A stretch of DNA of 64,000 nt from an uncultured beta proteobacterium (GTDB lineage Bacteria > Pseudomonadota > Gammaproteobacteria > Burkholderiales > SG8-39), in contig CAWENY010000013.1 in NCBI GenBank assembly GCA_963810475.1, forward strand, positions 76,816 to 140,815, given 5' to 3'. Of this stretch, positions 1 to 9,722 are shown piece by piece. The notes below the pieces were generated by a model. The model was given only the letters and a program-made list of their open reading frames with translations. It had not been told where the DNA came from and ran no database searches. The translations under genes were made by a program, and so were the position numbers. Within the stretch, counting starts at the first letter, position 1. Each line of letters begins with the position of its first letter.

Positions 1-287
1 GCGCGTTGACCGGCATCCCGGCATACCTGTCGCGGCCCTACCTGGAAATGATCAAGGACGGCCCGCGAAAGACGCTCGCCGGCGCGCGCCTCGCGGCGCT
101 CAGGGAAGTCGACCGGCAGGCCGATTACACCGCGGCCATGGACTTGCTGCGGCGCCTGCGCGTGCAGTGGTACGCCGTCGCTGGTGAGAAAGGACCGCGT
201 TGGGACCCCGGACGGGAGCGCGCAGCGTTCAGCGCTGGGGCGATTTCGCTCTACGCGACGAGCACTCCGGATGTCGGACGGTTCTAG
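1..287 (+). CDS. 3' end of an unidentified gene entering from upstream of the window (hypothetical)
   Basis: ORF 6..287 stays open to the window edge. I recognise no motif. Its stop overlaps the stop of the convergent 284..2110 gene by 4 nt. It could also be a GC-driven shadow ORF. Confidence 0.25.
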   Translation, partial: ALTGIPAYLSRPYLEMIKDGPRKTLAGARLAALREVDRQADYTAAMDLLRRLRVQWYAVAGEKGPRWDPGRERAAFSAGAISLYATSTPDVGRF

Positions 288-2110
288 TAGCACTTCGGCA
301 CGCAGCGCAGGCAGCCCGACGCCTCCAGCTCGTAAACGCTGAAATCGCGGCAACGCCATACCTCGCGATAGCCCTGGGCAGGCAGGCCCTCCAGCACTCG
401 CATGAGCTCCTTCGTTCCCACCGGCCAGTTGTCGAGCTTCAGGTCCGTCACTACGCACCGCACCGGATCGCCCGAGGGCTGCTGGCGAAGCTGATCGGGA
501 TACGCGGCCCAAAAGCGGGTCGATAGATGCGGCACCAGGGAACCGGAGGCAGCAGTCGCGGCCTGCTGGTTCAGGCATGGCATGACTTCGGAGGCGACCC
601 ACGCCGCGTGCGGATACCGCACATAGCTGTGCATGCGGGCGAGCTCGCTGGTCGCGACAAAACAGGAAACGCCCCAGACAAGCATCCAGATTCCCGCGCG
701 TTCCCAGCCGAAACGCCGCGCGAACGCGGCGAGGCCGAAGGGAAGCGCCCAGAAAAGCGCGGTTCCCGGCTCGATTCCGTAATGAAACGAGGCTGAATCA
801 AGGCCGAGGCTGACTCGTAGATCGCCTTCGGTGAGCAGGAGCATCAGATAAGGCGGCAGCGCCGCCACCGCCGCGCGCCAGTGAAAAAGCGGCAGAAACG
901 CGACTGGCGCCAGCGTCCAGAAAAGAAAATTCAGGCGCTCGCGGTCGATGAGCTGCGAGAAAAAATAACCGGGCTGCGTAAACGGAGCGAGCAGCAGATC
1001 GCCGATTCCACCGCCGAAGCGCTGGTAAACGCTCATGTACGCGTAGTCCCCCCCGAGCATCCGAGGCACGACTTTCACGTAGAAAAAGAACAGCGCTACG
1101 CTGGCAGCGGCGAGCGCGATGCCCGGCCAGCGCTGCCGCAGGGAGCCCGAGCTCGTCAAAGCCCAGGCGACACCGATGCCGGCACCGACGACCGGCGCGG
1201 ATTCCTTCGCCCCGAGTGCCGCGACCAGAGCCAGCAGCCCGAGTCCTTTCGCCCAACGTCGTTCGCTTCCGAATCCGGCGAAGGCCCAAAGGAACAGCGG
1301 CCACATCATGAATTCGGGATGAAAATCGAAGGCGTTCGCGTTTCGGAGCGGGAGATAGGACCAGTAAAGCCAGGGCATGGCGGCGCTCGCCCAATGCCCG
1401 CGACCGAAAAGCGTGCGCCCGAGGTAAAAAAGCGCCGGCCCGCCCGCGGCAAGCCCGAACGCCTGCAGGCAAAGCAACGTTTCGGGTCTTGGAATTAGCC
1501 AGAACAACGGAGCCAGCGCCCAATAGAGCGGGGCCTGGTGGTCGAGAAAGAGGTTCTGGCCGTTCTTGACGGCGGAAACATAGCCGTTGCCATGCGTCAG
1601 GTTCCAGATCGCGTTGGTGTAGATGCCGAGATCGTGGCCGTGGGTCTCGAGCGCCCAATGGCGCAACAGCGATACGGAGAAAAACTGCGCCCCGACGATT
1701 GCCGCGACGCTCCAAAGTGCGAGCCCCGGCGAGCGCTCGAGCGCGAGCAGCCAGCGCCGCGCAAGCCTCGCTGCCAGCCGCAGGAAAAAGCTCTTCTCCC
1801 ACGGCTCGCCCGACCAGTGGCGCGCGGCCAAGGCGAAGAGCGCCGTCACCAGCGCCGCGCCGGTGCCTTGCGTCAAATGAAGGCCGAGCAGGATCAGGAG
1901 AAAAAACGCGGCCAGCGCGACGGTCGCTATCCCAAGCGGCAGCCGGCGCTGCACCGCGTCGGTGACGAGCGCCGCGATGAGAAGCGGAACACCCAGATCG
2001 GCGAGGTGGAAAGAATAGCCGGCGACCTCGACAGCAACGCCTTGCGTAAGCCAAGGGTAAAGCACGAGCGTGGCGATCAGGATGTCGACCACGCGCATGT
2101 CGAGTCTCAT
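284..2110 (-). CDS. polytopic membrane protein, DUF2079-like
   Basis: ORF 284..2152 has many hydrophobic helices. The motif HGHDLGIYTNAIWNLTHGNGY...FLDHQAPLYW is one I associate with DUF2079. Start taken at ATG 2110 (MRLDMRVV), 4 nt after the stop of the upstream methyltransferase gene. Confidence 0.65.
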   Translation of the reverse strand: MRLDMRVVDILIATLVLYPWLTQGVAVEVAGYSFHLADLGVPLLIAALVTDAVQRRLPLGIATVALAAFFLLILLGLHLTQGTGAALVTALFALAARHWSGEPWEKSFFLRLAARLARRWLLALERSPGLALWSVAAIVGAQFFSVSLLRHWALETHGHDLGIYTNAIWNLTHGNGYVSAVKNGQNLFLDHQAPLYWALAPLFWLIPRPETLLCLQAFGLAAGGPALFYLGRTLFGRGHWASAAMPWLYWSYLPLRNANAFDFHPEFMMWPLFLWAFAGFGSERRWAKGLGLLALVAALGAKESAPVVGAGIGVAWALTSSGSLRQRWPGIALAAASVALFFFYVKVVPRMLGGDYAYMSVYQRFGGGIGDLLLAPFTQPGYFFSQLIDRERLNFLFWTLAPVAFLPLFHWRAAVAALPPYLMLLLTEGDLRVSLGLDSASFHYGIEPGTALFWALPFGLAAFARRFGWERAGIWMLVWGVSCFVATSELARMHSYVRYPHAAWVASEVMPCLNQQAATAASGSLVPHLSTRFWAAYPDQLRQQPSGDPVRCVVTDLKLDNWPVGTKELMRVLEGLPAQGYREVWRCRDFSVYELEASGCLRCVPKCY

Positions 2111-2114
2111 GGTG

Positions 2115-2861
2115 CTACGGAGCGCGTGCCAGGAGGCTGAACGACGACGCATACCGGCGCAGCAGCGGCACGCTCAGCATCAGGTCATCCAGTGCCGCGA
2201 GGCCCGGTGCAAGCGCGCGTGGTGTCCGGGGCGCAAGCCACGCGAGTGGCCCAAGGAAATAGTCGGTGTACGAGATCGCGGCCTGCGAAAAGCCGGCCGC
2301 CGCGGCGAGCGCGGCGAGGACCGCGGGATCGAGCTCCCGCTCGTCCGGGCTGTGGTAGCGGTCGTAGGTGCCGCGGACCAACCCGGCGAAGTACCGCACC
2401 AGGCGCCTGCGGCTGGGATCGCTGGAGTAGAACGCGCCGCCGCTGCGCAGCACCTTGCGAGCGGCGCGCAGCGTACGGTCGATCTGCGCGTCGCCCAGGT
2501 GATGAAGCACTGCGAACGCGGCGACGAAGTCGAAGCGGCCGAAGCTTTCCAGCGGCGCGCCCGCTTCCGACACTTCGAACGTGACGTTGCGCAGACCGGC
2601 CGCTTCCGCCCGTGCCCGCGCGTGCGCGATGGCGACCGGCGAGAGGTCGAGGCCGAGGATCTCGGCGACATGCGGCGCGAGGTGGCACTCGATCGACCCG
2701 TCACCGCAACCCAGGCTTAGGACGCGGTGCGCGCGGCCGGCGCCGGTCGCGTGCAGGAACTGGCGCGCGCTGCGCTGGTGGACGCGCCGGAAGAGCTCGC
2801 TGCCCTGGATCCTGGCCGCGTCGGCTTCATAGTGGTGGTCGTGGTAGTCGCGCTCGTTCAT
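2115..2861 (-). CDS. class I SAM-dependent methyltransferase
   Basis: Motif I VLSLGCGDG, then LDLS and FDFVAAFAVLHHL. Start chosen at ATG 2859..2861 (MNERDYH) rather than the ORF-track start at 3011. TAG stop at 2115..2117. Confidence 0.8.
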   Translation of the reverse strand: MNERDYHDHHYEADAARIQGSELFRRVHQRSARQFLHATGAGRAHRVLSLGCGDGSIECHLAPHVAEILGLDLSPVAIAHARARAEAAGLRNVTFEVSEAGAPLESFGRFDFVAAFAVLHHLGDAQIDRTLRAARKVLRSGGAFYSSDPSRRRLVRYFAGLVRGTYDRYHSPDERELDPAVLAALAAAAGFSQAAISYTDYFLGPLAWLAPRTPRALAPGLAALDDLMLSVPLLRRYASSFSLLARAP

Positions 2862-2868
2862 CGGCTGT

Positions 2869-3252
2869 TCAGTCGACACGCTGCGCGCCGCAAGCCGCCG
2901 GCGGGGCGGCGCCCTCGCGCTCCCAGTCGGAGAGGCGCCCGAGATCGAAATGGGTCGCGGAGCGGAATCGGTTGAGGATGACGCGGTCGGCGTACGCCTC
3001 CAGCCGCGCATCGAGCCCCGCGTAGTATCGCGACCATCCGCCGCCCAGCGGCTCGGTGACCGCGGTCTGTCCGCGAAACAGCCGGCGGCAGCTCTTTTCG
3101 ATCCGATCGAACAGCATGGAAGCGCGCTTCTCTCTTTCGACGTCGACCGGATCGCGCGTCGCGGGCCGAAGTGCGCAGGTGACGACCGAAAGCGGCTCGT
3201 GTGCCGGCCCGAGGTCCGGCGAGCCGATTGGCGGCGCGGGACAGCAGGTCAT
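2869..3252 (-). CDS. hypothetical protein (127 aa)
   Basis: ATG 3250..3252 overlaps the TGA (3249..3251) of the upstream membrane-protein gene as ATGA. The gene ends 8 nt before the methyltransferase start. No motif recognised (MTCCPAPPIG...MLFDRIEKSCRRLFRGQ...). Confidence 0.4.
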   Translation of the reverse strand: MTCCPAPPIGSPDLGPAHEPLSVVTCALRPATRDPVDVEREKRASMLFDRIEKSCRRLFRGQTAVTEPLGGGWSRYYAGLDARLEAYADRVILNRFRSATHFDLGRLSDWEREGAAPPAACGAQRVD

Positions 3253-9098: not shown

Positions 9099-9122
9099 CC
9101 CCCAGCGTGACCCCCCCAGGTC

Positions 9123-9150
9123 AAAAAAAAAGGTACCCCGAAGGGTACCT
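9123..9150 (-). terminator. rho-independent terminator downstream of pilA
   Basis: On the minus strand: AGGTACCC-TTCG-GGGTACCT followed by T8 (plus-strand A8 at 9123..9130). It lies 24 nt after the pilA stop. Confidence 0.8.
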
Positions 9151-9173
9151 CTTTTCAAAGCTAAGCCGACTTG

Positions 9174-9644
9174 TTAGCCGCGGCAGGAGCCGGGCAGATA
9201 CTTCAGCGTCACGTTGGTGCCAGTGCCGCCGCAGGTCCAGCCGAACAAGCTCTGGCTGTTGCCTGTGGTGAAGGTGGCCGCGGCCGCCGAAGTCGACATC
9301 GGGATCAGCGTGACCACCGAGCCGTTTACCGAGGAGCTGATGCCCGTCACGGTCGCCGTCACCGCGCCGTTAGCGCTGGTGGAGATGCCCGCTACGTACT
9401 TAGTGGCTTGTGAGGCGCTAATCTCGCAGCCCCAGCCATCTGCGCCCGGCGCGACGGTCGGACCGGACTGGTACACCTCGGTAATCGAGGTACGGCAGGC
9501 GCTCATCCCCAGAATCACTTCCGACATCTTCGCGCGGATCGTGTAGTCCTGATACGCCGGCAGCGCGACCGCCGCCAGAATGCCGATGATCGCAACCACG
9601 ATCATCAGTTCGATCAGGGTGAAGCCCTTCTGCAACGTTTTCAT
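9174..9644 (-). CDS. pilA: type IVa major pilin (prepilin) PilA, 156 aa
   Basis: Class III signal [35 protein letters not shown]-terminal Cys pair (..WTCGG..PGSCRG). GAGAGGGA Shine-Dalgarno about 8 nt upstream of ATG 9642..9644. TAA at 9174..9176. This is only the last 156 codons of the 384-aa track ORF. Confidence 0.95.
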
Positions 9645-9706
9645 TGTGGTGTCCCTCTCTTGGTGAATTAATTCGGTCAGCATTATTCTCTGACGCATCC
9701 CTGTCG

Positions 9707-9722
9707 AGCAACTCCCGTGCCA
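9707..9722 (-). promoter_or_regulatory. sigma-54 (-24/-12) promoter for pilA
   Basis: The minus strand reads TGGCAC-GGGAG-TTGCT, matching the TGGCAC-N5-TTGCW consensus. It lies about 63-78 nt upstream of the pilA ATG. Confidence 0.8.

Follow-up and report, generated by a model that had tools for sequence, protein, structure and literature searches.

A type IVa pilin gene followed by lipid-linked, GT-C-type glycosylation genes: a candidate pilin O-glycosylation system in an uncultured betaproteobacterium

The DNA analysed here is a stretch of 64,000 nucleotides (the window) from contig CAWENY010000013.1 of an uncultured beta proteobacterium (assembly GCA_963810475.1). Our subject is a gene set at its beginning, in which the type IV pilin gene pilA is followed by genes for glycosyltransferases (GT) and related membrane proteins. 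The whole feature lies on the minus strand, in a window with a G+C content of 65–72%, and its order is that of an operon, with a sigma-54 promoter, pilA, a strong terminator and then six genes (Table 1). The six genes are separated by gaps of 7–16 nt, apart from a single 4-nt ATGA overlap between GT2b and the DUF2723 gene at 6845-6848. A first-pass annotation, made from the letters and their open reading frames (ORFs), had described seven co-directional and tightly packed genes. The shared direction and the tight packing hold, but the number is six, as intact relatives show a merged ORF where two genes had been read. The supposed small hypothetical gene is the C-terminus of a 626-aa ORF that is unbroken in all relatives; this gene is shattered by frameshifts in the window, which gave its C-terminus the appearance of a small gene of its own. 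Of the two ATGA overlaps that had been listed, the one named above stands, while the other, at 3249-3252, is a by-product of the frameshifts in the 626-aa gene. Similarly, the ORF at 4770..5090 with tetratricopeptide repeats (TPR) is the C-terminus of the DUF2723 gene, which is a single 692-aa ORF in relatives. The start of GT2a is the ATG at 9098, not the TTG at 9158. Pfam upheld the family assignments already made (GT2, GT2 with GtrA, DUF2723, S-adenosylmethionine (SAM)-dependent methyltransferase and DUF2079). Scans of the window for tRNA genes and Rfam families gave no match, so there is no tRNA-bounded island here.

Table 1 Positions of the pilA-linked glycosylation genes and of their neighbours, with the single-base indels seen in the window copy.
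Feature	Position	Strand	Support or remark	Single-base indels
Sigma-54 (-24/-12) element, TGGCAC-N5-TTGC	9708..9722	-	perfect match, read directly	
pilA, type IVa major prepilin, 156 aa	9174..9644	-	Pfam Pilin 50 bits, N_methyl 39 bits	
Intrinsic terminator between pilA and GT2a	9123..9149	-	hairpin + T9	
GT2a, 382 aa	7950..9098	-	Pfam GT2 87 bits	
GT2b, 365 aa	6845..7942	-	Pfam GT2 105 bits, GtrA_DPMS_TM (PF04138) 66.7 bits	
DUF2723/TMEM260-like GT-C + TPR, 692 aa in relatives	4770..6848	-	PF11028	+1 at ~6368, -1 at ~5169
626-aa GT-C-fold membrane protein	2869..4758	-	single ORF in relatives, structure match	nine +1: 4742, 4412, 4027, 3760, 3666, 3407, 3384, 3257, 3213
SAM-dependent methyltransferase, 248 aa	2115..2861	-	Pfam Methyltransf_25/31/12/11, 61-69 bits	
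DUF2079 polytopic membrane protein, 604 aa	284..2098	-	final operon gene; PF09852 120 bits	
Small conserved gene, 107 aa in relatives	9809..10132	-	context only; upstream of pilA	+1 at 9836; now reads in frame into pilA
TPR-GT41 gene	10197..12168	+	context only; convergent with second TPR-GT41 gene	+1 at 11228
TPR-GT41 gene	12159..14156	-	context only; convergent with first TPR-GT41 gene	
GAF + HD-GYP-type protein	14175..15902			
GAF + MshEN + T2SSE ATPase, 792 aa	15800..18178			
Cyclic nucleotide monophosphate (cNMP)-binding protein	18384..19295			
CHASE2-cyclase-class II phosphodiesterase fusion, 989 aa	19298..22267			

PilA has a class III signal peptide and, in an alignment of 40 orthologues, four conserved cysteines. 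A Ser/Thr-rich pilin under sigma-54 control had been proposed, and both parts of that proposal are borne out: the globular part is 29% Ser+Thr, and the sigma-54 element lies 64 nt 5' of the start codon, with TGGCAY-N5-TTGC also found 5' of 37 of the 40 pilA copies in relatives. The gene thus combines the signal peptide, pilin family and -24/-12 promoter of a sigma-54-dependent type IVa major pilin. The terminator that had been noticed after pilA is likewise present and is conserved in relatives. It comprises the hairpin GGTACCC-TTCG-GGGTACC followed by T9, and the 62-nt region around it has a folding free energy of -24.1 kcal/mol; despite this fold and its conservation, it was left unlisted by the promoter/terminator scan tool. 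The terminator 24-mer GGTACCCTTCGGGGTACCTTTTTT occurs exactly, at the same place, in 30 related loci (for example at 7700-7723 of the forest-soil contig L001). As the cluster proteins in these loci are only 60–70% identical, the terminator is better conserved than the proteins, and the 24-mer may have a second role, in stabilising the mRNA or in regulated attenuation. The start codon of GT2a follows the T-run after only ~25 nt, which leaves no room for a promoter behind the terminator, and a promoter scan found no sigma-70-like promoter across positions 1..10400 of the window. Read-through of a terminator into pilin accessory genes has been reported in several bacteria (PMC11841053). Two tandem pilA copies are seen in some relatives (L012, L015, L016, L019, L023, L027, L031 and L090); in L019, L023, L027 and L031 the conserved terminator stands only behind the copy adjoining GT2a.

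The first two genes after the terminator probably encode synthases of lipid-linked sugars. GT2a is a GT2 catalytic domain with a C-terminal transmembrane domain (GT2_TM_C was matched on orthologues). Its best NCBIfam matches were AglJ, Dol-P-hexose transferase and PpgS, all under the cut-off, and its best PDB matches were ArnC, dolichyl-phosphate-mannose (Dol-P-Man) synthase (DPMS) and GtrB-like proteins, with ArnC and DPMS at E ~1e-7. These matches suggest an enzyme of the polyprenyl-phosphate-sugar synthase type. In GT2b, the GT2 domain is joined to a four-helix membrane domain of the GtrA/DPMS kind, and residues 3-357 match the Pyrococcus furiosus DPMS (5mlz) at E 6.7e-44, membrane domain included. 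Judged by sequence, GT2b has the architecture of a Dol-P-Man synthase over its full length; a flippase role for the fused GtrA-type module (PF04138) is putative.

The third gene encodes a protein of the DUF2723 family (PF11028), which scored 78.1 bits for the N-terminal fragment in the window and 98.2 bits for an intact orthologue (92% identical), against a cut-off of 24.2. The human member of this family, TMEM260, is a protein O-mannosyltransferase for the IPT domains of plexins, cMET and RON, with D52 as its catalytic Asp (PMC10214176). A DUF2723 family profile matched human TMEM260 (9rql) at E 1e-35 over ~430 residues (profile 19-445, chain 31-466), and the first Asp of a nearly invariant E41-D42-D43 motif aligns with D52; the window reads ALEDDSLF at this place. 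At the sequence level, the window protein is a true homologue of TMEM260. In its AlphaFold model (predicted local distance difference test, pLDDT, 67) the membrane part resembles the folds of ArnT, AftA, DPY19, Pmt4 and STT3, and the last ~180 residues match a TPR of the MamA type (probability 1.0, template modelling (TM) score 0.57); the Pfam TPR matches on the C-terminal ORF are weak. By homology, this TPR domain would be extracytoplasmic. Transfer of mannose from polyprenyl-phosphate-mannose to Ser/Thr is a putative activity, supported only by the translationally coupled, DPMS-type GT2b. GT2b and the DUF2723 enzyme may form the minimal module of the system, because their genes are coupled by the ATGA overlap and also occur as a free-standing pair.

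The remaining three genes are less readily placed. For the 626-aa protein there was no match in Pfam (E<=1), NCBIfam or PDB sequence searches. Its AlphaFold2 model, of moderate confidence (pLDDT 67.6), has a C-terminal periplasmic alpha/beta domain, and Foldseek matched it to ALG12 (6.7e-5), ALG9 (5.9e-4) and PimE (probability 0.99) with TM scores of 0.3–0.4; PIG-U, DPY19 and AftA are also resembled. By its model, the protein thus has a GT-C fold of the polyprenyl-phosphate-mannose-dependent kind. The label GT87/DUF2029-like, given to this gene earlier, was a reasonable one: a resemblance to the GT-C enzymes PimE, ALG12 and ALG9 is found, but a match to PF09594 is not, although a few orthologues carry a precomputed PF09594 match or the source name 'GT87'. 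The methyltransferase is a generic class I SAM enzyme in which no membrane segment was noticed by reading alone. Together with the DUF2079 gene it makes up an accessory cassette found in only some relatives; both were detected in three loci, and the other methyltransferase-bearing loci have no downstream match to the DUF2079 family. The DUF2079 protein had no PDB sequence match, and NCBIfam models matched neither it nor the DUF2723 and 626-aa proteins. We take the DUF2079 family to belong to the GT-C clan of Pfam, a putative assignment, as profile-profile comparison among the DUF2723, 626-aa and DUF2079 proteins gave no detectable similarity; its role as a third lipid-sugar-dependent transferase is presumed. 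Compared with L001, the DUF2079 gene contains 15 additional nt, inserted in frame at ~788..802 (CTTGATTCAGCCTCG) and in part a repeat of the preceding CAGCCTCG. On the 3' side of DUF2079, membrane genes of GT4, GtrA and spermine-synthase-like type are found in relatives.

As sequenced, several of these genes are broken. The window was compared with three relatives, namely L001 (~90% nucleotide identity), L004, from the metagenome-assembled genome (MAG) GCA_965233195.1 (~89%), and L088 (94.2% over 4430-14454). Between 3213 and 11228 the window has 13 single-base indels that none of the three relatives shares, and 12 of them are +1 insertions. All genes are intact in the relatives, and L001 and L004 differ by zero frame-changing indels within genes. 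The earlier statement that two GT-C genes are frameshifted is correct as to the frameshifts but understates their extent, since the 107-aa gene and a TPR-GT41 gene are also hit and nine of the events fall in the 626-aa gene. No homopolymers or phase-variable repeats were seen at the indel sites. Substitutions were assigned to lineages by a three-way comparison after removal of the indels. For the window lineage this gave 37.5 synonymous and 17.5 nonsynonymous changes in the DUF2723 gene (ratio of nonsynonymous to synonymous rates, dN/dS, 0.16) and 36 and 16 in the 626-aa gene (0.17), values that fall inside the spread of the two relatives (0.10–0.25) and close to that of intact neighbouring genes (0–0.24). 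Against a neutral expectation of 70–75% nonsynonymous changes, the binomial p is <1e-8 for each gene. The corrected frames contain zero premature stops and no excess of substitutions. Elsewhere in the window, a frame-plot scan showed further switches without stops at ~27413, 28606, 45863, 46118, 47221, 47656 and 55201. The switch at ~27413, confirmed by reading, splits the gene for oxalyl-CoA decarboxylase, leaving TPP_N in the ORF 25080..28109 and TPP_M with TPP_C in 26366..27433, and that at ~28606 is a candidate frame change in a Crp-like cNMP-binding regulator (28246..28854). The closest proteins found to those of the window are 92–95% identical, and no independent copy from the same strain was among them.

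Errors in the assembly consensus, clustered in the island, are the most likely source of the frameshifts, because these are almost exclusively +1 insertions, are accompanied by no relaxation of selection, have counterparts in unrelated metabolic genes and are absent from relatives. The further candidates elsewhere in the window suggest that the assembly is error-prone overall. Whether the frameshifts mark real gene death, a point on which the first-pass annotation had made its proposal depend, can thus be answered with a probable no. Natural pseudogenisation was rejected as their main explanation on the +1 bias, the dN/dS values and the similar defects in unrelated genes. We consider it very unlikely that the system is dead in this genome, with the 11 frameshifts of the DUF2723 and 626-aa genes real and the pilin unglycosylated, for instance after loss of phage pressure. 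Such decay would be in keeping with the concentration of nine indels within 1.5 kb, with their position outside homopolymers and with the untouched state of pilA, GT2a and GT2b. However, natural decay gives mixed indel sizes, mostly deletions, and the substitution pattern and stop-free corrected frames are not those of dead genes; the like defects in oxalyl-CoA decarboxylase at ~27.4 kb, with candidates at ~28.6, 45.8-47.7 and 55.2 kb, also argue against it. The question is in any case orthogonal to that of function, and annotating the frameshifted genes of the window as pseudogenes before re-sequencing would be unwise.

The relation between pilA and the cluster was assessed in other genomes. 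A DUF2723 alignment, run against a single genome of each species, gave 80 loci, whose genes were assigned by BLASTP searches using the proteins of the cluster and by a search for prepilin motifs; three further contigs were added via the pilin itself. Close homologues (47–87% identity) are present in 46 loci (L005-L050), nearly all from MAGs of uncultured soil Burkholderiales/Betaproteobacteria, with two (L041 and L043) from Gammaproteobacteria MAGs. In public genome and metagenome collections, each query (DUF2723, 626-aa) has hundreds of orthologues (roughly 700 orthologous loci in all), which makes the system an abundant one, and the genome matches are again soil Burkholderiales MAGs. Of the loci, 38 extend far enough upstream to be evaluated, and in 34 of these the distance from the end of pilA to the first glycosyltransferase gene is 70–240 nt, so that relatives do keep pilA beside the glycosyltransferase genes, a point that had been left as a check on the earlier proposal.

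Around this junction much else changes. The pilA copies, the TPR-GT41 genes, the 107-aa gene, a YfhO-like gene, GT2b and the methyltransferase/DUF2079 pair all vary, and one stable junction amid such rearrangement is informative. GT2b is missing in L027, L031, L032 and L090, and in L040 the DUF2723 gene directly follows pilA, the GT2 genes having gone. In L036, pilA is 3.2 kb from the first glycosyltransferase gene. Directly 3' of pilA this locus encodes (1056-2777) a different protein of 573 aa with FFDD near its N-terminus, clear C-terminal TPR repeats and, by reading, a hydrophobic multi-helix N-terminal part, which is an architecture like that of the pilin arabinosyltransferase TfpW; GT2b-DUF2723 lies further downstream. 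The YfhO-like gene (~750 aa) sits between GT2a and GT2b in 13 loci (L022 6650-8920, L027 7556-9799 and 11 others) and is not found in the window. It is associated with a pilin variant in which GWGCE is followed by an additional residue (10/12 versus 6/21 loci, Fisher p 0.004, not corrected for phylogeny).

Pilin genes also accompany more distant members of the family. Four loci from Patescibacteria, two of genomic (L067 and L077) and two of metagenomic (L085 and L086) origin, have a DUF2723 homologue of ~28–30% identity, with a gene resembling a prepilin peptidase directly after it. In L067 (141-5313), L077 (7460-15011) and L086 (3524-11260) three pilin-like genes then follow, and in L077 and L086 a YfhO-like gene comes before the DUF2723 homologue. 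In L087 (500-2554) a pilin-like gene lies directly upstream of the homologue.

Among characterised systems, the closest in design is TfpW of Pseudomonas aeruginosa group IV (Pa5196/PA7), a GT-C enzyme of 646 aa that has a DDX motif in loop 1 and a TPR domain in the periplasm; it is encoded after pilA and fed by polyprenyl-phosphate-monosaccharides (bioRxiv 10.1101/2020.04.19.049825). In both cases a GT-C enzyme with a loop-1 motif and C-terminal TPR is encoded after pilA, the donor is, or here would be, a polyprenyl-phosphate-monosaccharide, and there is no separate oligosaccharyltransferase. By analogy, the present system may work like TfpW. The differences are several: the proline motif YX6PFX7P of periplasmic loop 4 is absent from all 20 aligned DUF2723 sequences, and the proteins of the cluster include no domains of the D-arabinofuranose pathway (DprE1/DprE2/phosphoribosyltransferase). 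Moreover, the donors here would come from two GT2 synthases, one of the DPMS type, and three large membrane proteins (two GT-C folds and the presumed DUF2079) stand in place of one multifunctional enzyme. In the window, the two GT2 genes also separate pilA from the gene for the TPR-bearing GT-C enzyme, whereas the two are adjacent in L040. Membership of the DUF2723 protein in the TfpW family was rejected on the missing motif and pathway, a separation drawn from published TfpW features.

With human TMEM260 the DUF2723 protein shares homology, the aligned D52, the order of GT-C domain and TPR, and the pairing with an enzyme of the Dol-P-Man-synthase type. It differs in its bacterial, periplasmic setting, in a carrier that would be undecaprenyl and not dolichyl, in its proposed pilin client and in an operon that holds more GT-C enzymes. 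In actinobacterial O-mannosylation, the GT2 enzyme Ppm1 makes polyprenyl-phosphate-mannose and the GT39 enzyme PMT transfers the sugar to Ser/Thr of exported proteins outside the membrane. The two-step logic is the same, but that system is Sec-coupled and general, whereas the one described here is Gram-negative and pilin-linked and has a DUF2723 enzyme instead of PMT/GT39. A GT2 synthase, a GtrA-type module and a GT-C transferase are also the parts of GtrA/GtrB/GtrC, CsbB-YfhO and ArnC-ArnT, which decorate O-antigen, teichoic acids and lipid A; here, in contrast, the partner is a pilin gene and the GT-C family is one that glycosylates proteins. Finally, TfpO/PilO and PglL likewise act on type IV pilins in the periplasm and glycosylate them there, and the gene tfpO comes directly after pilA, with a leaky terminator between the two. 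Unlike the present system, they are Wzy_C enzymes that transfer an oligosaccharide en bloc from undecaprenyl diphosphate; neither Pfam nor NCBIfam gave a Wzy_C match on any protein of the cluster.

We are highly confident that the locus encodes a system for lipid-linked glycosylation in the periplasm. The pilin as its main acceptor is in our view the better-founded reading, with a probability of about 0.58, and we would give less than even odds to mannose as the first sugar. The first-pass annotation had proposed lipid-linked pilin glycosylation by GT-C enzymes outside the PglL and TfpO routes, and it gains support from the retained link to pilA, the likely artefactual nature of the frameshifts and the lack of Wzy_C matches; the pilin as acceptor is here inferred. 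In the mechanism that we propose, most sigma-54 transcripts would stop at the terminator behind pilA, and a small fraction would read through into the six accessory genes. At the cytoplasmic face, GT2b would load a hexose, with mannose as the favoured candidate, on undecaprenyl phosphate, and GT2a would load a second sugar on the same carrier. The donors would then be flipped, possibly aided by the fused GtrA/DPMS membrane domain. The DUF2723 enzyme, made in translational coupling with GT2b, would use its periplasmic TPR domain to bind the pilin anchored in the membrane, and its EDD loop would attach the first sugar to Ser/Thr in the globular domain of the pilin. Extension or diversification of the glycan, or modification of other sites, may then fall to the 626-aa GT-C enzyme and DUF2079 (or YfhO-like proteins in other strains), and the methyltransferase may methylate a precursor.

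A number of points weigh against the pilin as main acceptor. The relatives are all metagenome-assembled, and the Burkholderiales loci share descent, so that 34 of 38 does not stand for 34 independent events. Of the three genes for large membrane proteins, the two for DUF2723 and the 626-aa protein are broken in the window as sequenced, and homology does not reveal the identity of the sugar. In L041, L043 and L050 the GT2b-DUF2723 pair occurs by itself, in unrelated contexts, and lacks a pilin within 10 kb. The majority of the other distant DUF2723 genes (Anaerolineae and others) likewise have no pilin nearby, so the family as a whole is not restricted to pilins. These pilin-free occurrences are what would be expected of a general periplasmic O-glycosylation system, used as PglL is in Neisseria and Burkholderia, in which the pilin is one of many Ser/Thr-rich acceptors and the position of the genes beside pilA reflects the most abundant client; the TPR domain could recognise several clients. 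We find this unlikely, as the junction with pilA persists with gaps of 70–240 nt and an identical terminator in 30 loci, and as the pilin variant co-varies with the GT-C repertoire (an association not corrected for phylogeny). Client specificity is also seen in TMEM260 and TfpW, the characterised GT-C enzymes that bear a TPR domain (PMC10214176; bioRxiv 10.1101/2020.04.19.049825).

The cluster might instead modify an envelope glycan or lipid (O-antigen, core, lipid A, exopolysaccharide or periplasmic glucans), its place after pilA being merely a hot spot for variable islands. In general, systems built from GT2 and GT-C enzymes modify glycans such as O-antigen, teichoic acids and lipid A more often than proteins, and GT2, GtrA and GT-C together form the classical architecture for that task. 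Also in line with this are the YfhO-like genes of many relatives, which elsewhere serve in glycosylation of teichoic acids, and the fact that ALG9, ALG12 and PimE, the closest folds to the 626-aa protein, act on lipid-linked glycans. The GT4, GtrA and spermine-synthase-like membrane genes beyond DUF2079 in relatives fit it too, and the strong terminator could mark the genes downstream of pilA as a separate unit, which is again a point against a pilin-directed system. We nevertheless hold an envelope role to be quite unlikely. The sole enzyme of the cluster with a characterised homologue, DUF2723/TMEM260, belongs with a protein O-mannosyltransferase that has a protein-binding TPR domain; the link to pilin genes recurs in the unrelated Patescibacteria, beside a prepilin peptidase; and L040 keeps pilA and DUF2723 together though its GT2 genes are gone.

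Beyond the pilus locus, the TPR-GT41 genes reported to flank it were confirmed, as a convergent pair. Together with the 107-aa gene they were considered and rejected as core parts, as many relatives lack them while retaining pilA and the cluster. The 107-aa gene has no known domain and precedes pilA in some relatives only. A cyclic-nucleotide signalling block (14175..22267), which shows synteny with relatives, adjoins the pilus locus. Further along comes an oxalate/formate/C1 block (24125..40079) with genes for a formyltransferase, a family III CoA-transferase (formyl-CoA transferase-like), oxalyl-CoA decarboxylase, formate-tetrahydrofolate ligase and molybdopterin formate-dehydrogenase-like and NuoF-like subunits, among which genes for TctA and TctC transporters are interspersed.

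Pilin glycosylation is known from the en-bloc PglL/TfpO systems and from arabinosylation by TfpW, and it shields pili from phages and from immune recognition. Our literature search returned no functional study of bacterial DUF2723 or DUF2079 proteins and none on O-mannosylation of pilins. If the pilin is indeed the acceptor, the locus would represent a third, modular route of pilin glycosylation, in which an enzyme of the Dol-P-Man-synthase type is combined with a transferase of the TMEM260 type. A wider proposal, to which we give somewhat less than an even chance, is that bacterial TMEM260 homologues are dedicated pilin O-mannosyltransferases. They would belong to a GT-C assembly line (DUF2723, GT87-like, DUF2079 and YfhO-like proteins) fed only by undecaprenyl-phosphate-monosaccharides, with neither an oligosaccharyltransferase nor a Wzx flippase, which would operate in soil Burkholderiales and independently in Patescibacteria; strains would exchange its cassettes, which would be matched to the variants of the pilin, with phage pressure as the probable driver. 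If pilins are glycosylated by this route, the large DUF2723 family of bacteria would have its first function, and the TMEM260 pathway of metazoans an antecedent among prokaryotes. The route would also give the DUF2079 family and the uncharacterised 626-aa family their first testable function, and would offer a bacterial model for substrate recognition by TMEM260, a human disease enzyme.

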